A DNA stretch of 46,880 nucleotides, taken from sequence record MN158206.1; one strand, 5' to 3'. The translations under genes were made by a program, and so were the position numbers. Of this stretch, positions 576 to 46,569 are shown one piece after another. The notes under the pieces were generated by a model that was not told the DNA's origin, did not search any database, and saw nothing but the letters and a program-made list of their open reading frames with translations. This DNA comes from Escherichia phage BEK2. Position 1 is the stretch's first letter, and the number at the start of each line of letters is the position of its first letter.

Positions 576-1088
576 ATGAATTGGCATGATTATTTTGAAT
601 ACAAAGATGGGAAGATTTACTGGAAAGATTACGATAGCGAGAGGCTTGGAAGGAGAAGGATACAGCGAAGATTCATAGGGAAAGAGGTTGGCGGCATTGA
701 TAAAAGCCTAGGGTATGTTAGGGTAAACATGCCTGGTAAAAAATATTGGGTTCATAGAATAATCTGGGAGATGCATAACGGAGTAATACCAGAAGGTATG
801 CAAATTGACCGTATAAATCATGTTAGAAATGTTAATAGGATAGAAAACCTTAGGTTAGTTACAATTCAGGAAAATAGAAAGAATCAGTCAATAAATTCGA
901 GGAATAAGACCGGGGTTACCGGAGTCTGCATAGTATCTAGGACTGGCAAATATGCAGCTCAAATAAAAAAGGATGGAGAGAATATTCACTTGGGATTCTT
1001 TGATAATATTCACGACGCGTCGATTGTCAGGGCGAGGGCTGAATTTATTCTTGGGTATCATAAAAACCACGGGAGGAAAGATGAGTGA
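576..1088 (+). CDS. HNH homing endonuclease with AP2-like DNA-binding domain
   Basis: HNH motif 'YWVHRIIWEMHNG...IDRINHVRNVNRIENLRLVTIQEN' followed by AP2-like 'TGVTGVCIVSRTGKYAAQIKKDG'; 3' end overlaps terL start by 8 nt. Confidence 0.8.
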   Translation: MNWHDYFEYKDGKIYWKDYDSERLGRRRIQRRFIGKEVGGIDKSLGYVRVNMPGKKYWVHRIIWEMHNGVIPEGMQIDRINHVRNVNRIENLRLVTIQENRKNQSINSRNKTGVTGVCIVSRTGKYAAQIKKDGENIHLGFFDNIHDASIVRARAEFILGYHKNHGRKDE

Positions 1089-5134: not shown

Positions 5135-6223
5135 ATGAGTAAAATCCGCTATGATAGCGCGAAGGTGAAGGCTCGATTTGATGAAAACGGCTTTCTGGTT
5201 GATACCCCGATTGTTGCACGCGTCGGGGTGCAAACCTACTACCTTCCAGATGGCACAGAACGCAGAGAATTTAGACCAGCCTCGGAGGTCTTTAAGCCTG
5301 ATTCTCTGGATAGTTATCAGGGCAAACCAATTACATTAGGTCATGTATTTGTTAACTCAGATAATGCTAAAGAGGTCGTTGTAGGCGCGGTGTCTGGCTC
5401 AGCAATGCGTGAAGATTCAAATGTGATTGTTCCACTAACTGTTTACGACAAAGAATCAATCGAGAAGGCCAAAAATGGAATTGCTGGTGAGCTATCTGTA
5501 GGGTACTCAACTGTTGACGTTGAGTCCAAAGGCTGGGGTAGTAACGAAACTGGTGAGTATAAGCTAGATGGTGAGTATCAATCACAGGATGAAATTCCTC
5601 CTGACTGGGTTAGATTCGATGCGCTGCAAACTGAAATTAAAGTAAACCATGTCGCGCTGGTATACAAAGGAAGAGCGCAAGTAGCAAAGTTAAATTTTGA
5701 CGCTCAACAGGAAAACCCGTATACTACTGACGTTGATATCAATAAAGAGGATAAACAGGAAATGATTAAGATTAAACTCGACGGCGCGCAGGAATTCGAA
5801 GTTGCACCGGAAATCGCTTCTCACATCGAAGCACTGAACGCAAAGGCTGACACTGCAATCGCAGAGCGCGACGCACTGAAAGCCAAGGTTGATGCAATGC
5901 CTGCTGAAATCGAAGCTGCAGTTGCTAAAGCGAAAGCTGATGCTGATGCCCTGGCCGCTCTGGTTGCCGTTGCCGCTGAAGCTGGTGTCAAAGCTGATGG
6001 TCTGGATTCTAAAGGTATTAAAGTTGCCTACGTTAAAGAAATCTCCGGCCTTGATGTTAGTGAGAAGTCTGACGCATACATCGACGCGGCATTCGACATT
6101 GCCAAAGAATCTGATAAAATGGCTGAAGTACGTAAAGCGACTACCTCTTCCGATAAATCTGACAGCGCCGATGAGCCTAAGAAATTAGATCCGCGTGCTC
6201 GTTTAGCTAAAATTAAGAAATAA
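5135..6223 (+). CDS. scaffolding/prohead core protein
   Basis: N-terminal globular domain plus Ala/Lys/Asp/Glu-rich coiled-coil C-terminus 'AKADTAIAERDALKAKVDAMPAEIEAAVAKAKADADALAAL'; position before capsid genes. Confidence 0.55.
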   Translation: MSKIRYDSAKVKARFDENGFLVDTPIVARVGVQTYYLPDGTERREFRPASEVFKPDSLDSYQGKPITLGHVFVNSDNAKEVVVGAVSGSAMREDSNVIVPLTVYDKESIEKAKNGIAGELSVGYSTVDVESKGWGSNETGEYKLDGEYQSQDEIPPDWVRFDALQTEIKVNHVALVYKGRAQVAKLNFDAQQENPYTTDVDINKEDKQEMIKIKLDGAQEFEVAPEIASHIEALNAKADTAIAERDALKAKVDAMPAEIEAAVAKAKADADALAALVAVAAEAGVKADGLDSKGIKVAYVKEISGLDVSEKSDAYIDAAFDIAKESDKMAEVRKATTSSDKSDSADEPKKLDPRARLAKIKK

Positions 6224-21714: not shown

Positions 21715-21757
21715 ATAGTATCGCATCCTTGCGATCAGTGTTTAGCAATTAGTGCTA
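21715..21757 (-). promoter_or_regulatory. composite early-type promoter (box + -10 TACTAT)
   Basis: box 21743-21757 (minus sense TAGCACTAATTGCTA), -10 at 21715-21720, leader 'ctccATCGAAACGAAAT'. Confidence 0.55.
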
Positions 21758-22503: not shown

Positions 22504-23172
22504 TTTCTTTTCCAGCAGCAGCTTGATGTCAATGCCGAGATTATTCTCAATCAATCCGGTCAGCGCATCATTCTTTTCTTTAAGAGCGAAGCATTGCGCT
22601 TCATACTTAAATCTTTCCTCCATCTCATTCGAGCGACTAGCCCAACACTGGCGAGCCTCACAAGCCAGCATATCGAGTTTTTCATCGGTATTCTTATCCA
22701 TGAGTAAGATCTCATTTATTCTTTGCTCTGCAACAATGCGCTGGCTCAGGTGTGCATTTTGCGCATTAGCCACACCAAGCATCATTCGAGCCTCTTTTAG
22801 CTCATCAATGCTTACCATCCGGCTGATTACTTCTGCTTGTTTTTTAACTAACGCCTCGAGCTCATGAAGTCGACGGATAACTCTGCGACGAAGAACTACG
22901 CTGTAGCCAGTGATTAGCGTTTCGGTGAGTTCCTTGTTGAGTAAAATCTCAGATGTATAGCCTCGATTATCCGTAAGTACTTGATAATCATCATGACCCA
23001 AATCTGGGGCATCGTTATAATGTAACAATTCATTGATCATTTCCTTTGTGTCGCGAACGACGTGATCATGACGCTTACCTGTCAATTCAGCAATTTCCTT
23101 CGTGCTCATCATGGTTTTTGGCTGTTCTTTGTACGCTTCAATTTTCATTTTAGTCTCTCTTATGCTTTTCAT
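22501..23172 (-). CDS. Rha-family (phage regulatory protein Rha) domain protein with coiled-coil C-terminus
   Basis: 'MSTKEIAELTGKRHDHVVRDTKEM' matches Rha N-terminal domain; start 23172/23148/23112 uncertain. Confidence 0.65.
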   Translation of the reverse strand: MKSIRETKMKIEAYKEQPKTMMSTKEIAELTGKRHDHVVRDTKEMINELLHYNDAPDLGHDDYQVLTDNRGYTSEILLNKELTETLITGYSVVLRRRVIRRLHELEALVKKQAEVISRMVSIDELKEARMMLGVANAQNAHLSQRIVAEQRINEILLMDKNTDEKLDMLACEARQCWASRSNEMEERFKYEAQCFALKEKNDALTGLIENNLGIDIKLLLEKK

Positions 23173-23252
23173 GGCTCAGATTTGAGCCATCGCTTGGTTT
23201 TGCTCTACCGATTTTCGGTAGACCAAGCAGCACCATTGCCACCATGCGACTA

Positions 23253-23295
23253 AATATACCTAAAGATAGTCAGTTGTCTTTAGCAATTAGTGCTA
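23253..23295 (-). promoter_or_regulatory. composite early-type promoter (box + -10 TATATT)
   Basis: box 23281-23295, -10 (minus) 23253-23258. Confidence 0.5.
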
Positions 23296-23780
23296 TTTAT
23301 CGCCAATTTCACCACAAATCACAGTTACACGTAACCGATGTAACTCGATGTATACAATCTCATTCGCGGAAAATGATATACGCGCCGTTACGCAAATTTA
23401 CGCAATAGTTACATTAAAATATCTATATATATCAACCTTTTACTATTATTATTATTATATATATTACTGTGTATATCATGTAACTACTGTTCTGGAGTGT
23501 TCCGGTTATAATTTTAATATCATGTGGATTTATACAGTATTGTGTGGCAGCCATACCAATGCACCCCCCGCAAGAAACGGTATACACGATATACACGATG
23601 GTTACATTGAGCTATATCTGGGCTGAGATGCCATTTTACGTAACAAGTTGCAATGCCTACACGGAATTACAAGTATTCACGCGTAAGTTTAAATCAACGA
23701 TTGGCAAAACCAATTGGACTGGCTACGGTACCGAATATATAGTTACCTCATCGAAAGCAAGCAACCAGAGAGATACAGAA
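23296..23780. repeat. divergent control region A: iterons + AT-rich microsatellite tract (candidate origin/operator region)
   Basis: GTTAC-AC-GTAAC inverted repeat 23324-23335, TTACGCAA x2 (23386-23404), tandem TATACACGA x2 (23581-23598), (TA)n/(TTA)n tract 23415-23490, shared block 23604-23646. Confidence 0.5.
23714..23743 (+). promoter_or_regulatory. rightward sigma70-like promoter of region A
   Basis: TTGGAC ... TATAGT (23738-23743) followed by leader 'cctcATCGAAAGCAAGCA'. Confidence 0.45.
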
Positions 23781-23975
23781 ATGACCTACTACATTATCAA
23801 AGAGAAAAACAACGCACTGTTCGGCGATTGCTACTTTGGAGGCGAGGCCGGTTACACCACCGATAAGAATGAGGCAGACCGATTCGATACCAAAGAAGAA
23901 GCCAGGGATGTGCTGACTGGTTACTTCACTGAAGAAGATTTGAAGTCTGTTAAAGTAGTTAAGGTCAAGGGGTGA
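23781..23975 (+). CDS. hypothetical protein
   Basis: 64 aa ORF (internal start of track ORF 23544) directly after promoter/leader. Confidence 0.45.
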   Translation: MTYYIIKEKNNALFGDCYFGGEAGYTTDKNEADRFDTKEEARDVLTGYFTEEDLKSVKVVKVKG

Positions 23976-23978
23976 GTT

Positions 23979-24944
23979 ATGAGCTTTAAGGTTTTTACAA
24001 GGGAGGAACTATCAAACTCGGAGTACCACGCTGAAACTGAACACATCTCAGGTTCCTCACTTGTCGAGATTATTCAGGGTTCACCAGCCAAGTGGAGGTT
24101 TAAGCAACGCAATAGCGATAGCAAGGCTCTTAAGTTTGGAACGCTGAGTCACACGTATATCCTAGAGGGTGACATGTTTGATAAAGAATACCTTCGAGCT
24201 ACAGACCTTGATGCGATTGATGGATTAATTACAAGCCAAGCAGGATTATCAGCAGCACTTAAAAAAGTTGGTGTAGCTGGCACGTCCGGGAAGGGGTATA
24301 GCGAGCTCGTAGAAATGATGTATCGTTCTGGTGAGGATTGGCCTGTTAAATGGTTAATTGAGCAGCAGGAGGGCGCGCAGGCGCTCGTGGAGGGTAAGGA
24401 GTTGGTTAGCGCCGCAGACTATGACAAAGTGATAGCTATGCGTGAGGTTCTTTGCAACATTCCGGAATATGATGCAATTGTGAACAGCGAGACGGCGCAG
24501 AAAGAGTTATCAATATTCGGTGAGATTCTAGGTGTTGGAGTTAAGATTCGAATCGACCACGTAGATGTTATTGATGGTGTGGTTCGGATCACAGATTATA
24601 AAACGACAGCGGACGCAAGCCCAGAAGGATTTGGTAAATCAGCATTCAATCACGGATACCTTGCAAAAATGGCATTACAGCGTGATCTATTTGTTAAGGC
24701 ATTCAACGAGAAGCGCAAGGTTGTTGTAGGATTGCTGGCACAGGAGAAGGTGGAGCCATACTTACCAATGCTGTACACCTTAACTGACGAACAGCTTCGA
24801 ATCGGTAGGTTGCAGTATCTTGAGGCGCTGGCTACTTACAAGAAGTGTAAGGAGCTAGATAGCTGGCCAGGGTACTCTAATGGCATTACAGAGCAAGAGC
24901 TATTAGTTCCTGAGTGGGCATTAAAACAATATAAAGAAATCTAA
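23979..24944 (+). CDS. PD-(D/E)xK family exonuclease (recombination nuclease)
   Basis: 'VKIRIDHVDVIDGVVRITDYKT' D..D.K nuclease motif; upstream of Erf. Confidence 0.65.
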   Translation: MSFKVFTREELSNSEYHAETEHISGSSLVEIIQGSPAKWRFKQRNSDSKALKFGTLSHTYILEGDMFDKEYLRATDLDAIDGLITSQAGLSAALKKVGVAGTSGKGYSELVEMMYRSGEDWPVKWLIEQQEGAQALVEGKELVSAADYDKVIAMREVLCNIPEYDAIVNSETAQKELSIFGEILGVGVKIRIDHVDVIDGVVRITDYKTTADASPEGFGKSAFNHGYLAKMALQRDLFVKAFNEKRKVVVGLLAQEKVEPYLPMLYTLTDEQLRIGRLQYLEALATYKKCKELDSWPGYSNGITEQELLVPEWALKQYKEI

Positions 24945-24945
24945 A

Positions 24946-24988
24946 TAGCACGAATTGCTAAAACAAGGTGGGATAGCTGAGGTATAGT
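24946..24988 (+). promoter_or_regulatory. composite early-type promoter (TAGCACGAATTGCTA + -10 TATAGT)
   Basis: box 24946-24960, -10 24983-24988. Confidence 0.6.
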
Positions 24989-29116: not shown

Positions 29117-29140
29117 CGTGTAAAGTCTCCTTTTGTAAAA

Positions 29141-29155
29141 TAGCACGAATTGCTA
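29141..29155 (+). promoter_or_regulatory. orphan TAGCACGAATTGCTA box (no phased -10 for adjacent gene)
   Basis: perfect box between primase terminator and tail-fiber start codon, antisense to both. Confidence 0.4.
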
Positions 29156-29180
29156 AGTTGGATTGTAGCATCTTTCGGGT

Positions 29181-29202: not shown

Positions 29203-30126
29203 TTAGCTATTCAATAAGTCACTTGCCTTATATATCTTCTTCCTGATGCCGCTCTTGAATGAGTATTCATCATTTGGTATTACCACGTCAATACACCTGT
29301 CATCCGCAACGCAAAGCAACTCTCTGTCAAGTTTGCACGCCACTCTCAGCTTTTGGTTTCTAAGCGCGTAAGCAACCATTTCCATGTTGTAACTGGAGTA
29401 GCAAACAAGCACACAGCGGTTGCCAGTAGCAATGTGAACACGATAGCCGTCAATGAGATTATCGACCAGATAAGCGAACTCACCATCCTTAAGGGAACCA
29501 ATAACAGCCACAGACTGGCGAGTGTAATCTTTTGCGGCATAACTAACATCTCCTTCTTCATTGATAAACATTACATTGCACATTTCTTCTGATATACCAT
29601 CACCATAAGCCATGAAGCAAGGTATTGCATGGATTAATTCACCTGATTTTGCTCTACCAACATCAAAGCCAAACTCGCTATAGATTCCCTCGTATATACT
29701 GAGTGGGGTTGATTCTACTCTTTCCGTCCTTCCCATTATCTCTAAGCATCTTTCGTGGTCAATTTGAGCGCCCATTTTGTAGAGCTGGGTTCTTGATGCT
29801 TGCTTGTTTGCCTTGTTGACAACCTCAACCGGGATAAGGTTTAGCCACTCACCGAGAACGTCGATACACTCACTGAATGACTCGCCTCGCAGCTTCTGGA
29901 CCCAGAGAATTCCATCCCCTGAGCCGCACTGGTTGCAGATAATGCCACCATCACCATCTTCGCTAACCTTGTTTGTCCATCTCGCGCGATCGTTTCCACC
30001 GCAATAGATGCATGGCTTGTGCTTCTTGGTCTGGAAAAACTTAGGATCTGCGCCGCAGATGTTTATAAGCGCCTTATCCCACAGTCCGCGCATTCTTGGT
30101 AGAACCTCTTTCTTATCGTAGTGCAT
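29203..30126 (-). CDS. DNA primase (zinc-ribbon + catalytic domain)
   Basis: 'PCIYCGGNDRARW...GGIICNQCGSGDGI' matches primase Zn-ribbon pattern. Confidence 0.65.
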   Translation of the reverse strand: MHYDKKEVLPRMRGLWDKALINICGADPKFFQTKKHKPCIYCGGNDRARWTNKVSEDGDGGIICNQCGSGDGILWVQKLRGESFSECIDVLGEWLNLIPVEVVNKANKQASRTQLYKMGAQIDHERCLEIMGRTERVESTPLSIYEGIYSEFGFDVGRAKSGELIHAIPCFMAYGDGISEEMCNVMFINEEGDVSYAAKDYTRQSVAVIGSLKDGEFAYLVDNLIDGYRVHIATGNRCVLVCYSSYNMEMVAYALRNQKLRVACKLDRELLCVADDRCIDVVIPNDEYSFKSGIRKKIYKASDLLNS

Positions 30127-33028: not shown

Positions 33029-33444
33029 AAATTACAGACAAAGTTGACTACATTGAGTTTTACCATGGCCCGGTTAAGTCTTGCCCGAAAGAGGATGACG
33101 AGCAAATCTTTTGCTCTGATTGGGTTAAGTATAACTATCCAGAGATGGTATTTTTCCACTGCGTGAATGAGGGTAAGAAAACCATTGGTCAGGCAAGAAA
33201 AGACCAGGCCAAGGGGCTTCTCAAAGGCGTATCAGACTGTATGTTTCTTATTCCCGAATCTATCCGAGGAAAGTACCCTTTCGGAGCCATAGAGCTAAAG
33301 AGGGCTGGGAAGACGCAGGCTAGTCCGGTCAGCGACGAGCAGAAGTCATTCCTTAAAAGCGTAAGAGAATCAGGAGGTTTTGCCGGGGTAGCCTACGGTC
33401 GCGAGGGTTTTCTAGCGGCGTTTAAAGAAATGATTTCAAAATAG
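33025..33444 (+). CDS. VRR-NUC domain nuclease
   Basis: 'DCMFLIPES...GAIELKR' D..E.K core; coupled to helicase (ATGA overlap). Confidence 0.65.
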   Translation: MKITDKVDYIEFYHGPVKSCPKEDDEQIFCSDWVKYNYPEMVFFHCVNEGKKTIGQARKDQAKGLLKGVSDCMFLIPESIRGKYPFGAIELKRAGKTQASPVSDEQKSFLKSVRESGGFAGVAYGREGFLAAFKEMISK

Positions 33445-33484
33445 CACGAATTGCTAAAGACGTTTCGTTGAGTTGGTGTATTAT
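33442..33484 (+). promoter_or_regulatory. composite early-type promoter (TAGCACGAATTGCTA + -10 TATTAT)
   Basis: box 33442-33456, -10 33479-33484, leader 'ttcATCGAAACGAAACG'. Confidence 0.6.
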
Positions 33485-37882: not shown

Positions 37883-39466
37883 TCACCCCAGCAGTCGCGG
37901 ATTAATGTAAACCTTATCACCAATCAGGCACGTGTAGTTTTTCTCGTCAAGCATTGGCAGTAGGTGATCTTTAATCTTCGTCATTACCCCAGCCTGAGCC
38001 TCGAACGGCTTAACCTTTCGAGCAGCTTCATATAATGAGCGAATACCAACTACACCCTTGCCGTTCTTTCCTTGCTTGATCAGGATATCAATCAGCTTAT
38101 TCATCTCGGCATTATCGCCAGCGTGACCAGCGGCGTTAGCAGATGAAAGATAAGTCTTGCTAAGTTCATTGAACATAATTACAGCTTCTTGCATGGTATC
38201 AAGCTCAATCTCTCTTGACTTCTGTGGACTCCCGCCATTTGGGTTAAACCAGTTACGCACAGTGTGAAGAACCGCCGCAATCCTGATGGCCTGCTTATCG
38301 AACTTACCCAGGGCGCCGCGCAACATTGTGTGGGAATACTTCCCGCCGTCCGCAAGGTGAGGCTCCATCTCCTGACGTGCGCGGTTAAGATACTTCATTG
38401 CTGAGTTGCTCACTGTCAACTTAACATCTTGCTCATTCATTATTTCATGAACTAATCGGAAATAGTCGGCCTTGAGTCCACCATCAATTGGCTCATATGT
38501 TGAATCTCCATTCTCATCAACAAACACACGCTCGCCCAAAAATGACTTTTCACGCACAAGCAGAAATCGCTCCGACACACCGATACCACGTGCGCCAGCG
38601 TTCATGATTGCATTGATTGTTTCGTCTTGCGCAATTACTGAGATGCAACCCATAGCAACGAAGCTCATGTTGTTCTCTGCGTTCGCACGCGCAATGGACA
38701 CGTTACCAGCATCCCATGCCTTCAGTACAAGTTCGCTGTTCGTCTTCTTGGATCCGTCACCGTACGTCATACCTAGCAGTGAGTTGACGCTCGTCGCCTC
38801 ATCAGAGATAACCGCGAAGTTACCTTGTCGGTTGTTTATTCGTGCCAGACCTTCCGGCGTGGTGTCGGATACAGGGAAAACGATATCACAAAGTTTCTCG
38901 AGCTTTTCCTCAAGCTCCTCCTTCTCCTCAAAAAGAGAAGCCATCTCTGAAGGAGATTTCTCCTGCTTCATCTCTTTGGATAATGCAGATAGTTTGGCCA
39001 TGATCTTCTTGCGCTCACGCTTGCGAACTTCATTAAGACGCTCAGTCTCAGCAATCATTGGAGCAATCGATAGCGAGTTAATTGCTGATTTACCAGTTGA
39101 TGGCGGCTGGCTTGTCACGACGTAGAGCGCAGTTGGTTGTTGGGTTCCATGATACTCAACTGTAAATCGGCCCAGCATCGCAGCGGAAATACACCCCAGG
39201 AAGTGCATGTATGCGGACGACTCAGGAAACTGAACCGAACGAGCTATGTTAGATGACAGTTTGCCAACAACATCAATATCATTACCTAGTGAGATTACGG
39301 GATACTTGTCATTAGCTGCATCAATCTCGACCGGAGCCTTCCAAAATGATTGAGAATGACGATAGCCATTGGCATTGATAGCGACGCGCAGGGGTGGGAG
39401 GTTGTCCGCAGCAGCAATTGCCATAACCTGTTCAACAGACAGTTTATCTTCGTTGAAATCAAACAT
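37883..39466 (-). CDS. P-loop ATPase, putative replication initiator/helicase
   Basis: Walker A 'SQPPSTGKSA', Walker B 'FAVISDEAT'; N- and C-terminal segments paralogous to 42798..43322. Confidence 0.65.
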   Translation of the reverse strand: MFDFNEDKLSVEQVMAIAAADNLPPLRVAINANGYRHSQSFWKAPVEIDAANDKYPVISLGNDIDVVGKLSSNIARSVQFPESSAYMHFLGCISAAMLGRFTVEYHGTQQPTALYVVTSQPPSTGKSAINSLSIAPMIAETERLNEVRKRERKKIMAKLSALSKEMKQEKSPSEMASLFEEKEELEEKLEKLCDIVFPVSDTTPEGLARINNRQGNFAVISDEATSVNSLLGMTYGDGSKKTNSELVLKAWDAGNVSIARANAENNMSFVAMGCISVIAQDETINAIMNAGARGIGVSERFLLVREKSFLGERVFVDENGDSTYEPIDGGLKADYFRLVHEIMNEQDVKLTVSNSAMKYLNRARQEMEPHLADGGKYSHTMLRGALGKFDKQAIRIAAVLHTVRNWFNPNGGSPQKSREIELDTMQEAVIMFNELSKTYLSSANAAGHAGDNAEMNKLIDILIKQGKNGKGVVGIRSLYEAARKVKPFEAQAGVMTKIKDHLLPMLDEKNYTCLIGDKVYINPRLLG

Positions 39467-41633: not shown

Positions 41634-41670
41634 TTTTGTGTCTCCGTGAGTTCTTCGTTTCGATGGAGTA

Positions 41671-41714
41671 ATAATAGCGAATCACACCCGATCGGTCATT
41701 AGCAAAAAGTGCTA
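41671..41714 (-). promoter_or_regulatory. composite early-type promoter (box TAGCACTTTTTGCTA + -10 TATTAT)
   Basis: box 41700-41714, -10 41671-41676, leader 'ctccATCGAAACGAAGAA'. Confidence 0.55.
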
Positions 41715-42300
41715 TTCGTTAGATTTATGGATTGTTGCAGATATTGCAATGATTCACATAATTATTGCACATACAGCAATATTGCTTCAGATGCAATGAT
41801 GTTTTTGATTGTTGCGAAAAGTGAAATGAAGTGGGGAGTGAGCGAATGAAAGATGGATGGACTACCATACAAGTTGATTTTGATTCTGGCTGGGCCATTT
41901 TCACGCCTACACGTAACGCCAGTAGCGCGATGTAAGCCAAGGCCAATCGTTACGTGAGTTACGCGCAGCTACGCCCGGACTTACACTATAAGTGCTTAAT
42001 ATATATATATATCTTCTTTCTATTATTATTATTAATATTAATATTATTGTATGTAAGTCGTGTAACGTGGGTCCTAGCGATATCTATATGTTTTTTCCTA
42101 TCAGAATACATTATTGCTATTTTATGTGGGATTTAGCCAGTATGGGGCCATTGCACTCATTTGCCTCGTTACACGCACGACACGAAACTACATTGAGCTA
42201 TAGCTGGGCTGGTGTGCCATTTCGCGTAACGACCCCCAAAAGTTACCAAAAATTACACTTGACTACATGTGTAAGTCGGGATATGATGGACTCAACTTAA
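41715..42300. repeat. divergent control region B: ATTGCA iteron array, GTTACG repeats, AT-rich tract, two copies of the shared block (candidate origin)
   Basis: (A/G)TTGC(A/T) about 7 copies 41730-41815; block copies about 41887-41920 and 42190-42232; (TA)n/(TTA)n tract 41995-42055. Confidence 0.5.
42259..42287 (+). promoter_or_regulatory. strong sigma70 promoter (rightward early)
   Basis: -35 TTGACT, 17-bp spacer, -10 TATGAT. Confidence 0.65.
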
Positions 42301-42318
42301 ACGAGAGGAGTGATAGAG

Positions 42319-42798
42319 ATGAACGAGAAGGTAACATTAGGCCAAGTGATTCGTGAGATGGTAAAGGCGGCGCTTAAGTCTGAGGATAAGCAGATCAGCG
42401 TGACACTCAACAAGATTGAGAGCCTTATTGGCGCAGAGGAGGGTGGTCTACATAAGCTTAAGAGCTCATACATCTATAATACAACGGCTCGCATGCCTGA
42501 GTTGAGAGATGCCGGACTGAAGGCGACCCACCATTATGATGAGGATGAGGGTGATAGTGAGTTTGGTGAAACCACTCTGGCTGGGGAAAAGAAGTTAGTT
42601 ATCAAGCTGATTCCTGGAGCTGCAAACATTGGAATCAGGAAGAAGACCAACGACGCGATCAAGGATGAGGCAATCAATGGGTTCAAGGCCAAGATTTCGA
42701 AGGTGATGCCAGACCTCTCTGAGTATGAGGGTGAAGCGCTTGCAGCCGCCATGAAGGCCATTAAGGATTACCGTTTAATTATTGAGGAGATTAAGTAA
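42319..42798 (+). CDS. hypothetical protein (first rightward early gene)
   Basis: ATG 42319 with GAGGAG RBS (track GTG 42310). Confidence 0.55.
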   Translation: MNEKVTLGQVIREMVKAALKSEDKQISVTLNKIESLIGAEEGGLHKLKSSYIYNTTARMPELRDAGLKATHHYDEDEGDSEFGETTLAGEKKLVIKLIPGAANIGIRKKTNDAIKDEAINGFKAKISKVMPDLSEYEGEALAAAMKAIKDYRLIIEEIK

Positions 42799-43322
42799 TG
42801 TTTGACTTTAACGAGGATAAACTGACAGAAGAGCAGGTTATGCAAGTAGCCATGGCAGATAGCCTTCCACCACTACGTGTTGCAATCAGCGCTAACGGGT
42901 ATCGACAGTCAACGGCGTTTTGGGGTTCGATTGATACCTCAGAGGTGTATAGTGGTGATGAGCTTGGTGTACTGATTAAAATCATCAGGAAAATGGGAGT
43001 TAACGGCAAAGGAGTTGTCGGCATTAGGTCTCTATACGAAGGTGCTCGCAAGGTTAAGCCCTTTGAGGGTAGCAATGGAATCATGGCGCGTATTAAGGAT
43101 GAGCTCATCCCAGCTCTAGAGGAAATTAATATCGCTTGCCTAATTGGAGATAAGATTTATGTCCACCCAGCTATCATTGATGAGTACTGGCAACCCAACT
43201 TCAAAACTTACGAAGGTGAGCACCCCAGTAGACTACCACACCACTTGCGATACAGTGACGATGAGATAATAAAGGCGATTCGGTTCTACTGGGAAGCTAA
43301 ATCACTGCTTAGCGGCGGATAG
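42798..43322 (+). CDS. truncated paralog of the 37883..39466 ATPase (N- and C-terminal domains only)
   Basis: 'MFDFNEDKLTEEQVMQVAMADSLPPLRVAISANGYRQS' and 'NGKGVVGIRSLYEGARKVKPFE...CLIGDKIYVHP' match both ends of the 527-aa protein. Confidence 0.6.
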   Translation: MFDFNEDKLTEEQVMQVAMADSLPPLRVAISANGYRQSTAFWGSIDTSEVYSGDELGVLIKIIRKMGVNGKGVVGIRSLYEGARKVKPFEGSNGIMARIKDELIPALEEINIACLIGDKIYVHPAIIDEYWQPNFKTYEGEHPSRLPHHLRYSDDEIIKAIRFYWEAKSLLSGG

Positions 43323-43362
43323 CACGAATTGCTAAAAGGGGATTCATCCTGACTGGTATAAT
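43320..43362 (+). promoter_or_regulatory. composite early-type promoter (TAGCACGAATTGCTA + -10 TATAAT)
   Basis: box 43320-43334, perfect TATAAT 43357-43362. Confidence 0.6.
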
Positions 43363-43516: not shown

Positions 43517-44149
43517 ATGGCTAAAATTATCATTCTTAACGGACCCGCTTCTATTGGTAAGGACACTATTGGCAACGCGTTATGCTATGATTACCGATGC
43601 ATCAAAACCAGCCTTAAGCGTCCAATGTTTGAAATTGCCGAGTCAATCCTGGGGGTGGAGGCATTCAGTAAGTTCATCACGGCTTATGATGACCGAGATC
43701 AGAAAGAGATGCCTCAGAGCTTCCTTGGTGGCAAGACCTGCCGCGAGTTCATGATCTGGATTAGCGAAACGGTAGTCAAGCCTCTATTTGGCAACCAGCA
43801 ATTCGGTAAGCTGATGAGCGAACATATAAATCTGTGTGATGAAGGATTCACGTTCGTTTGCACTGATGGCGGGTTCACTGATGAAGTCATAAAGCTTGTT
43901 GAAGATGGTCACGATGTTACCGTTGTGCGTCTATTTATGGATGGCAAGACCTTCGCAGGCGATAGTCGTAATTACATCCACATTGAAGAATCTCAGTTCC
44001 ATTACTGCTCGTGGTATCAGGAGTGTGACGTGCATCTAATAAGTGGTGACATTGATGGCGGTGTCCTGGCGGTGGCTGAGGCTTGCGGTATTAGCTCATC
44101 AGTCCCAGAGGTTGATGTTTACGAGTGGGAAGATGGATTGCCCTGGTAA
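43517..44149 (+). CDS. P-loop nucleotide kinase (dNMP-kinase-like)
   Basis: Walker A 'LNGPASIGKDT' resembling T4 gp1 'GVKRSGKDT'. Confidence 0.55.
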   Translation: MAKIIILNGPASIGKDTIGNALCYDYRCIKTSLKRPMFEIAESILGVEAFSKFITAYDDRDQKEMPQSFLGGKTCREFMIWISETVVKPLFGNQQFGKLMSEHINLCDEGFTFVCTDGGFTDEVIKLVEDGHDVTVVRLFMDGKTFAGDSRNYIHIEESQFHYCSWYQECDVHLISGDIDGGVLAVAEACGISSSVPEVDVYEWEDGLPW

Positions 44150-44150
44150 A

Positions 44151-44193
44151 TAGCACTTTTTGCCTAACCCTCTTCGGAGGGTTTTGTTATAGT
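44151..44193 (+). promoter_or_regulatory. composite promoter variant with embedded terminator (TAGCACTTTTTGCCTA, hairpin, -10 TGtTATAGT)
   Basis: box 44151-44166, hairpin ccctc-ttcg-gaggg + T4 (44167-44186), -10 44188-44193, leader 'tcccATCGAAAGCAAAC'. Confidence 0.55.
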
Positions 44194-44231
44194 TATCCCA
44201 TCGAAAGCAAACAACCAAACGGAGCTACAAA

Positions 44232-44721: not shown

Positions 44722-44855
44722 TTTACATCCACACGTACTACACTGGTAAGTTTAATAGCGTTAAGCATGCTCGAGTTCACGATAGCTACGATAGTGCAAA
44801 GGCTCAATGGTTGGTTCTTGGTGGTGATATTAATTCATATAGAGTCGCTGAATAG
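44718..44855 (+). CDS. hypothetical small protein (45 aa)
   Basis: ATGA overlap upstream; stop TAG inside box. Confidence 0.35.
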   Translation: MIYIHTYYTGKFNSVKHARVHDSYDSAKAQWLVLGGDINSYRVAE

Positions 44856-44895
44856 CACTAATTGCTAAAACAGTATTGGGGTAATTTGTTATAGT
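44853..44895 (+). promoter_or_regulatory. composite early-type promoter (TAGCACTAATTGCTA + -10 TGtTATAGT)
   Basis: box 44853-44867, -10 44890-44895, leader 'ccccATCGAAACGAACGAGG'. Confidence 0.6.
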
Positions 44896-44925
44896 TACCC
44901 CATCGAAACGAACGAGGAAGCAGAA

Positions 44926-46492: not shown

Positions 46493-46569
46493 GCTCGAGT
46501 GGCGAAAGTGGATATCGCAAGAGACTTCTAATCTCTAGATTGCTGGTTCGAATCCAGCCTCGGGCGCCA
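46493..46569 (+). tRNA. tRNA-Arg (anticodon UCU)
   Basis: hand-folded cloverleaf: acceptor GCTCGAG/CTCGGGC (one G-U), D-stem GCGA/TCGC with GG in loop, anticodon stem AGAGA/TCTCT, loop CT-TCT-AA, T-arm GCTGG-TTCGAAT-CCAGC, discriminator G, encoded CCA. Confidence 0.8.

Follow-up and report, generated by a model that had tools for sequence, protein, structure and literature searches.

The window analysed here comprises 46,880 nucleotides of Escherichia phage BEK2 (MN158206.1) and is essentially the complete genome of a T1-like siphovirus (Drexlerviridae, Braunvirinae). It differs from the record of Escherichia phage BEK3 (MN158207.1) by seven substitutions, one homopolymer A and one TAT unit, the last of these in the AT tract of the region called A below. 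Region B is a gap of 689 bp without genes (41634-42322). It separates two operons, one of small genes read leftward (the first from 41633, minus strand) and a rightward one whose ATG lies at 42319. The second gap, 23149-23780, is called region A and has a leftward Rha-domain gene on one side and a rightward exonuclease/recombinase operon on the other. The first-pass annotation had described both regions as flanked by divergent operons, and this was borne out for A as well as for B. GC and AT skew tracked gene orientation and gave no replication signal; since both loci are switch points of transcription, GC skew says nothing on replication. In addition to the Rha-domain protein, the phage encodes a Cro-like regulator, and several homing endonucleases are encoded in the genome.

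A promoter scan and a comparison of repeat families placed a leftward early promoter with one copy of a 21-nt repeat at 41671-41718 on the minus strand. The -10 sequence TATTAT occupies positions 41676-41671 and the -35 sequence ATGACC positions 41699-41694, and the repeat, aaATAGCACnnnTTGnTAAAA, is located on the minus strand at 41718-41698. This repeat is known from TLS, T1 and Rtp (PMC11447400). As expected for the promoter-associated 21-nt repeat of Drexlerviridae, copies that match the consensus, run with transcription and precede a start codon were found at the head of each leftward operon, at 41698-41718 (minus strand) and at 23279-23302 (minus strand). These 21-nt repeats are flanking elements that lie outside the module shared by the two regions. 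At the other end of region B the promoter scan revealed a rightward early promoter, TTGACT-17-TATGAT (42242-42287, plus strand), with a 10/12 match.

Regions A and B had been reported to share a block of about 43 bp with about 85% identity. A blastn search of region B against the window detected this block at 42189-42230, matching 23603-23644 with 85.7% identity over 42 nt (E 3e-8); the similarity thus holds, and the coordinates given earlier were off by 1-2 nt. Collinear with it is another match, at the AT tract (41998-42066 to 23418-23484, 78%, E 7e-10), which is of low complexity and hence weaker evidence. The distance between the two matches is 185 bp in A and 191 bp in B. The pairwise alignment of A and B therefore supports a statistically significant, collinear similarity that extends over a module of about 340 bp rather than over the 43-bp block alone. 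A partial third copy of the block, noted earlier near 41887-41920, is real, if short, and turned out to be the left bracket of module B. It follows the pattern GCCAWTTT-N(0-25)-ACGTAAC, which occurs in the genome only at 23302, 23630 and 41894 (0 expected), and a near-copy of the element, GCCATTTCGCGTAAC, was found at 42216-42230. Thus, the same element brackets both modules.

Both modules have the same anatomy: three to four direct repeats of 6-7 nt (GTTACGC/CTTACAC type) are followed by a tract of about 60 bp with about 90% A+T, by inverted repeats beyond it, by a spacer and by a second group of repeats that continues into the block. From bracket to bracket, module B spans 41894-42230. Its left bracket, GCCATTTTCACGCCTACACGTAAC, occupies 41894-41917 (plus strand). 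The first iteron cluster follows at 41948-41987 (plus strand) with four direct 7-mers spaced 9-12 bp apart, GTTACGT, GTTACGC, GCTACGC and CTTACAC. Next comes the AT tract (41996-42055, 92% A+T), a candidate DNA-unwinding element, and directly to its right are two iterons in the opposed orientation, GTAAG and GTGTAAC (42053-42067, minus strand). The sequences 41948-41962 and 42053-42067 form an inverted repeat with 80% complementarity and 90 nt between the arms. The right half of the module consists of a conserved box, GATATCTATATGTTTTTTCCTATCAG (42079-42104), near-invariant in the module alignment, a variable spacer (42105-42165), in place of which AugustePiccard and UALMA_PCEc3 carry unrelated sequence, and a second iteron cluster (GTTACAC, GACACG and CTACAT; 42166-42230, plus strand). 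This cluster leads into the shared block TACATTGAGCTATAGCTGGGCTGGTGTGCCATTTCGCGTAAC (42189-42230), the right end of which consists of an inverted repeat and the right bracket. The first iteron cluster and the AT tract of B are 200-300 bp away from either promoter.

Module A, the paralogue, occupies 23302-23644 (plus strand) and consists of bracket, iterons, AT tract, inverted iterons, spacer, iterons and block. Its first iterons (ATACGC, TTACGC, TTACGC and GTTACAT) were located at 23378-23414, the AT tract at 23405-23466, the inverted iterons at 23469-23484, the second iterons at 23580-23609 and the block at 23603-23644. Order and orientation of the iterons agree between A and B, and in both modules the AT tract is spanned by iterons or inverted repeats that face each other.

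The repeats are strongly concentrated in the two modules. The GTTACG-type repeats seen at first reading were confirmed by counting GTAAC/GTTAC, of which 15 of the 102 copies in the genome fall within the 772 bp of the modules (1.5 expected, p 6e-11). For TACACG, 7 of 20 genome copies are in the two modules, and when 400-bp windows were ranked by their content of the pattern [TAC]TAC[AG]C, the top two of the genome were exactly A and B, with nine copies each compared with a mean of 1.2. An AT tract in region B had also been picked out at first reading. No other 60-bp window of the genome is less stable than the tract at 41996-42055, with -52.9 kcal/mol compared with a genome mean of -79.7 (sd 4.6), and the AT tract of module A comes second.

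The conservation of the modules was examined in related phages, where variants of the block were present in both the A and the B modules. The sequence variant of the B type was detected in 21 phage records, compared with 133 for the A module; other relatives have a different module variant at the B locus. Paired modules at the same two loci were found in T1, TLS, KP36 and several Braunvirinae. Seven modules of the B type, drawn from three subfamilies, were aligned. Near-invariant parts were the first iteron cluster, the AT tract, the promoter and the inverted repeats, the AT tract being the same in all seven phages apart from changes of TAT/TAA units, while the spacer of 60 bp varies. That iterons and AT tract are kept while the spacer drifts indicates selection on the former. 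The modules might alternatively be functionless relics or vehicles of recombination, that is, cassettes bounded by GCCATTT...CGTAAC and swapped between phages. The short direct element that brackets each module would fit this idea, and so would the limited distribution of the B-type variant, the different variant at this locus in other relatives and the homing endonucleases of the genome. However, the architecture is retained at both loci throughout the family despite turnover of the sequence, and near-invariant iterons and AT tracts next to a drifting spacer point to selection. Swapping of cassettes would, moreover, be compatible with a function. Taken together, we regard modules without function as quite improbable.

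Family members with diverged sequences can be compared by the stability of their DNA. The two least stable 60-bp windows always corresponded to the A and B loci in this phage, DTL, EC3a, T1, TLS, KP36, JeanPiccard and RobRod40, the scan covering about 27 kb of the genome for JeanPiccard and RobRod40. In these eight genomes the A and B windows ranged from approximately -53 to -56 kcal/mol, the third window from -60 to -62 and the means from -80 to -85. We extended the comparison to 80 viral contigs that encode the helicase. Nearly all of those loci that had a full upstream flank of 6 kb showed an AT tract 1.6-5.6 kb upstream of the helicase gene; L050 was the one clear exception, and L055 was marginal (-62.8 kcal/mol). 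Among 28 non-redundant AT tracts, the flanks carried short repeats specific for the lineage (GGGAC, ATAACA, GAAAC, GAACA and ATCTTACC). The number of 5-mers common to both sides of these 28 tracts was in modest excess, 95 inverted and 96 direct compared with 62 in shuffled sequences, so that the two orientations were equally frequent.

The iteron word varies by lineage, yet it is common to A and B within a genome. In this phage and in T1 the word is TTACRC/GTTACA. In TLS it is GAACA, with 13 copies compared with 2.1 expected, and in KP36 it is ATCTTACC, for which all five genome copies are in A or B and two of the three copies of the complement in the modules. The recombination operon of KP36 is inverted, and module A is inverted along with it. 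When the 160-bp cores of A and B were compared within each genome, the identity was clearly above background only in KP36 (0.8), and elsewhere the cores grouped by locus. Concerted evolution at the sequence level is thus not general, and only the iteron word is common.

The left part of region B differs from the module. In the first-pass annotation all of region B was treated as one iteron region, with about seven (A/G)TTGC(A/T) repeats at helical spacing. Seven copies, counting both orientations, are indeed present in 41734-41797, at spacings of 9, 2, 19, 11, 6 and 11, which fit a helical period only loosely. They belong to an array of GATTG/TTGCA repeats at 41719-41830, which contains TTAGATTTATGG, with an 8-nt match to the P22 pac core, and which is the densest 110-bp window of the genome for RTTGCW (7 copies, 0.44 expected). 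The array is entirely missing from region A, and the segment 41719-41880 is separately conserved, being kept in 129 phage records. The idea of a single iteron region was therefore abandoned. That of duplicated regulatory or origin modules fared better: the duplication is supported by the collinear homology over about 340 bp and by the presence of modules at the same two loci in relatives, and the anatomy fits an iteron/AT-rich origin.

Several lines of evidence suggest that the array is the recognition and cleavage region for packaging. The T1 record begins and ends within the homologous array; its last gene stops at 48674 and its first gene starts at 539. A terminal repeat of 2.8 kb is annotated in T1 from position 1, which aligns to about 41738/41739 here and is taken as the terminus from the annotation of that record. 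The records of ESCO41, Rtp, Rogue1, TLS and KP36 likewise begin or end in the homologous array; many record starts may merely follow the T1 convention. For TLS, restriction mapping has put the pac site at a distance of about 5,882 bp to a HindIII site (PMC11447400). The TLS record, which is cut in this locus, has its sole HindIII site near the left end at 5876, and position 1 of the record thus corresponds to the mapped pac. In the description of SU57, the pac site of T1 and T1-like phages has also been assigned to this untranslated region (PMC7718038). In this phage the start of the terminal redundancy is placed in the array by synteny. Taken together, the GATTG/TTGCA array is probably the pac site, at which headful packaging would start, and this is more likely than a function of these repeats as replication iterons. 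We infer that the terminase of this phage would itself cleave here. Region B would then sit at the physical left end of a T1-like genome.

Two further comparisons concern the pac site. The consensus of the P22 pac, AAGATTTATCTG, was the criterion used for the pac site of TLS, and an 8-nt match to the P22 core, AGATTTAT, is present at 41721-41728. It is not significant on its own, as approximately 1.4 such 8-mers are expected per genome (2 x 46.9 kb / 4^8), and the match is absent from T1. Ends of metagenomic contigs were used as an independent sign of termini; 3 of 10 fell within 300 bp of the AT tract, which is not significant in view of the way in which the loci had been selected.

With a probable pac site in its left part, the whole of region B, AT tract and GTTAC repeats included, could serve packaging by binding of terminase and bending of the DNA, in which case A would be a secondary pac-like site. 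Some pac and cos sites, such as SPP1 pac and lambda cosB, comprise bent AT-rich DNA and repeated boxes. This precedent and the position of region B at the genome ends of T1 and TLS would speak for such a function. Against it, the GATTG/TTGCA array is entirely absent from A, no record begins in region A, and T1 and TLS have been described with a single pac site. We consider it very improbable that packaging accounts for the entire region.

Between the array and the module lies a conserved segment (41831-41893) with a Shine-Dalgarno-like GGGGAG and a short ORF starting with the ATG at 41847. Conservation of this segment is at the nucleotide level, without a third-position pattern. The ORF has 29 codons here and 15 in most relatives, with a stop at codon 16 in G8, IME542 and DTL, and it was rejected as a coding sequence. 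A small protein or a small non-coding RNA was also considered as the product of the block or the module. Open reading frames called mechanically run across the region (41992-42300 and 41954-42136 on the plus strand, 41725-41946 on the minus strand), and a permissive Rfam scan of region B gave one weak match, ES003, with an E value of 0.063 and a score below the gathering threshold. However, these ORFs cross the AT tract and the spacer, where indels and replacement occur, and the annotated ORF 23559-23975 overlaps the block of A only by a start that was probably called too early. No Rfam family reached the threshold, and the gathering scan of the whole window returned just a tRNA. RNAalifold, applied to the seven B modules, gave a covariation term of +0.6, and the predicted pairs correspond to the inverted iterons. 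A structured RNA was thus rejected, there being neither a covariance-model match at threshold nor a structure supported by covariation, and a coding or RNA-specifying function of the block or module appears scarcely credible.

The rightward promoter of region B connects the iterons with transcription. Its -35 sequence is bracketed by inverted iterons, TTACAC (42253) and GTGTAA (42269), a layout that resembles an operator. The -35 sequence lies between inverted iterons also in G8, IME542, JeanPiccard and T1, and in Sf12 both arms are altered together (TTACGC...GCGTAA). The joint change of these arms would be understandable if the modules were purely transcriptional, that is, operators at which an early or middle regulator would act on the divergent operons, with an AT tract that is bent or UP-like and without a role in replication. 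A purely transcriptional function would also agree with the position of both modules between divergent promoters, with the probable winged-helix protein encoded by the first gene downstream, and with the presence of the Cro-like regulator and the Rha-domain protein. However, the AT tract and the first iteron cluster are 200-300 bp from either promoter, and the modules are common to A and B despite different types of rightward promoters at the two loci. An extreme AT tract with opposed short repeats is the layout of an origin and not that of any known operator, and the Rha-domain gene beside A is missing in T1, DTL and JeanPiccard. Some of the repeats might well act as operators in an origin, as is the case in iteron plasmids. 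An exclusively transcriptional role is, in our opinion, unlikely.

Judged from the sequence, the module of about 340 bp at 41894-42230 is probably one of two paralogous replication-origin-like elements. For region B as a whole we lean slightly towards a composite control region, made up of the leftward promoter, the pac array, the origin-like module with its paralogue in A, and the rightward promoter.

The phage encodes several candidates for proteins that would act at such an origin. The leftward operon beginning at region B has as its last large gene (37883-39466, minus strand) one for a DUF3987 protein of 527 amino acids, an SF6, MCM-like helicase with a C-terminal winged helix, which is the candidate replicative helicase and initiator. 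Searches of PDB sequences with the helicase gave no match; matches were obtained only by comparison of folds. According to the AlphaFold model, which is confident (pLDDT 89.8), the predicted fold is MCM-like with a C-terminal winged helix and resembles that of SaPI Rep and SCCmec Cch. An AAA+ helicase that ends in a winged-helix domain, as is characteristic of SaPI-type origins, is thus present in the phage. In the literature, DUF3987 proteins are counted among the replicative SF6 helicases that carry a winged helix at the C-terminus, and for one member unwinding of DNA and binding to its own primase have been demonstrated (PMC4889955, PMC11724360).

Two genes to the right of region B are also of interest. 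The first gene of the rightward operon (42319-42798, plus strand) codes for a DUF7174 protein, a candidate binder of the iterons or the operator. Its model, of moderate confidence, predicts a winged helix and two long helices and yielded weak matches to winged-helix proteins, among them the iteron-binding initiators RepE and Pi. One source calls this protein a transcriptional regulator. Its promoter is the one placed between inverted repeats. The second gene (42798-43322, plus strand) encodes a 174-aa paralogue of the helicase, in which the N-terminal 45 or so amino acids (55% identity) and the C-terminal winged helix (59% identity) are kept but the ATPase core is missing. Only Braunvirinae have this gene; in T1 and TLS no separate gene of this kind was detected. 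A DnaG/Toprim-type primase with a zinc ribbon is encoded at 29203-30126 (minus strand), and its homologue in T1 is annotated as "similar to P4-type alpha replication protein".

The N-terminus and the winged helix are the most variable parts of the helicase. The winged helix is 49% identical to that of T1, which has the same iteron, and 60% identical to that of TLS, which has a different one; the helicase of JeanPiccard is 99% identical to that of this phage, and their B modules differ. The similarity of the winged helix does not track the iteron class in this phage, T1, TLS and JeanPiccard, a pattern at odds with a simple reader role of the helicase.

A mechanism can be proposed for the origin-like modules. 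A winged-helix protein of the phage would bind the short iterons, which are opposed across the AT tract; the C-terminal domain of the DUF3987 helicase, the truncated helicase paralogue and DUF7174 are candidates for this binder. The AT tract would then melt and the MCM-like helicase would load itself, followed by priming by the phage primase and elongation by the host polymerase. The same binder might also control the adjacent rightward promoter via the inverted repeats at its -35 sequence. What the analysis establishes is the anatomy of the sequence with its statistics, its conservation in the family and the predicted folds of the proteins; binding of protein to the iterons, melting and firing of the origin are inferred. 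A more general version, in which all Drexlerviridae would have two origins with repeat words that coevolve in each lineage, one of the origins being fused to pac, and in which both would be run by the helicase, its truncated paralogue and an autoregulated, Rep-like DUF7174 protein with its promoter inside an iteron palindrome, is put forward as a tentative and rather doubtful possibility.

If the two-origin design is true, the onset of replication and that of packaging could be coupled through the origin beside pac. T1 belongs to the seven classical T phages, and T1-like phages are known all too well as contaminants of laboratories and fermentations. For this group the analysis offers two precise candidate origins, 23302-23644 and 41894-42230, as well as a rule by which they may be found in any member of the family, namely as the two 60-bp windows of lowest stability, each with a lineage-specific 5-8-mer on its flanks. 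The separation of the probable pac array from the origin-like module is of relevance to phage engineering, to vectors that can be packaged or replicated, and to consistent genome starts.

Our search of the literature detected no paper that assigns a role to region A or B. The authors who described TLS found no iterons (PMC11447400), and recent descriptions of T1-like phages found neither an origin nor iterons (PMC11447400, PMC7718038). We also looked for signals of a host-type origin such as oriC or a lambda-like origin. Each region contains one DnaA box with one mismatch, which corresponds to background, and 0-1 GATC sites; IHF sites were at background level as well, and the modules are intergenic. 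This lack of host-type signals fits an initiator encoded by the phage, although it is negative evidence.

For the left part of region B the closest counterparts are the pac sites of T1 and TLS, as this part is syntenic with the mapped pac of TLS and with the start of the terminal repeat of T1 and consists of a dense array of short repeats. In P22, on the other hand, pac lies within terS, whereas the array described here is located approximately 5 kb upstream of terS.

The origin-like modules can be compared with those of SaPIs, plasmids and other phages. SaPI origins contain 6-12 penta- or hexanucleotide iterons and a central AT-rich region, with the iterons on its two sides opposed, and the iterons are read by the winged helix of the self-loading Rep helicase, which melts the DNA without ATP (PMC9371898). 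As in SaPI origins, at least six short repeats of 5-7 nt are concentrated in each module here (nine in each), and both modules have a central AT-rich tract with opposed iterons on either side. The location differs: the SaPI origin lies immediately downstream of rep, whereas B is about 2.4 kb upstream of the start of the helicase gene, at the head of its operon, and A is about 14 kb away. The likeness to the iteron plasmids (F oriS-repE, R6K gamma ori-pir and P1 oriR-repA) consists in inverted copies of the iteron that overlap the promoter of the initiator gene.

Two distant cis elements that carry the repeats of the initiator occur in SPP1 (oriL and oriR) and in the satellite phage P4 (ori and crr), and in P4 a primase-helicase that has a DNA-binding domain at its C-terminus acts on the two elements. 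In contrast to P4, primase and helicase are separate genes here, and crr of P4 is itself no origin. SPP1 is a siphovirus of the pac type, and our phage would share with it the two related repeat-bearing elements many kb apart, but there is neither sequence nor protein homology to G38P of SPP1. If the proposed reading is true, the modules represent an iteron/AT-rich origin with a self-loading helicase, notable for its two paralogous copies, one of them beside the packaging site.

Throughout the window we found a 21-nt repeat, AATAGCACnnnTTGCTAAA, which forms the partial palindrome TAGCA-N5-TGCTA. Examples are the copies at 2647-2666, 24943-24962, 29138-29157 and 33439-33458, and further ones lie at 43317-43336, 44149-44206 and 44850-44908; copies on the minus strand are located at 21741, 22487, 23279, 39956, 41327 and 41698. 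Many operons are preceded by the repeat, which is usually followed by a -10 element and a conserved leader, TATAGTTAnCnCATCGAAA. It seems likely that the repeat is the site of a dimeric regulator and overlaps the UP/-35 position. Its function is listed among the open questions in the TLS paper (PMC11447400).

Two further conserved segments lie in region B, a gap between divergent operons. The segment at 41831-41893, which separates the pac-like array of GATTG/TTGCA repeats from the origin-like module B, shows nucleotide-level conservation and carries a strong Shine-Dalgarno-like GGGGAG together with an ATG at 41847, from which an open reading frame extends for 29 codons in the window and is stopped after 15 codons in most relatives. 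Seven B-type modules have the box GATATCTATATGTTTTTTCCTATCAG (42079-42104), which is not an iteron, in almost unchanged form. No clear counterpart of this box was seen in module A, the paralogue in region A.

The 138-aa ORF annotated to the right of region A (23559-23975, plus strand) probably has the ATG at 23781 as its start codon, and its match to PHROG 5247 is limited to residues 75-137. Its annotated N-terminus contains a promoter, TGGACT-17-TATAGT (23715-23743), as well as the block shared between regions A and B, which accounts for a spurious protein-level match of this ORF to region B. Region A has at its left edge two hairpins, ATGGCTCAGATTTGAGCCAT (23171-23190) and CTCTACCGATTTTCGGTAGA (23207-23226), in the 5′ leader of the leftward Rha-domain gene, directly before its start codon; region B does not share them.

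Compared with GenBank MN158207.1, the window differs by one TAT unit, one homopolymer A and seven substitutions (sites named: 23444 and 29189). The TAT-unit difference affects the (TAT)n repeat within region A's AT tract (23444). Among relatives, the number of TAT/TAA units differs in the tract of region B.

A 174-aa protein (42798-43322, plus strand) resembles, at the protein level, the DUF3987 helicase without its ATPase core. Residues 1-69 are 55% identical to helicase residues 1-73, and residues 51-127 are 59% identical to the winged helix (helicase residues 448-526). This protein may serve as a decoy or regulator at the sites, whatever they are, to which the helicase termini bind. Its gene is carried by Braunvirinae, apparently split in IME542; a separate gene of this kind was not found in T1 and TLS.

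A homing endonuclease gene (576-1088, plus strand) separates the small terminase gene from the large one. In relatives, HNH genes occupy other sites, beside the primase, the helicase or tail genes, a sign of active endonuclease traffic. The tRNA gene at 46493-46566 (plus strand; Rfam, 63 bits) corresponds in position to an annotated tRNA-Arg in relatives.

Finally, in Klebsiella phage KP36 (L098 34514-35010) the exonuclease/recombinase operon and module A are inverted together when compared with region A of BEK3, and hence the polarity of the module is fixed relative to this operon.
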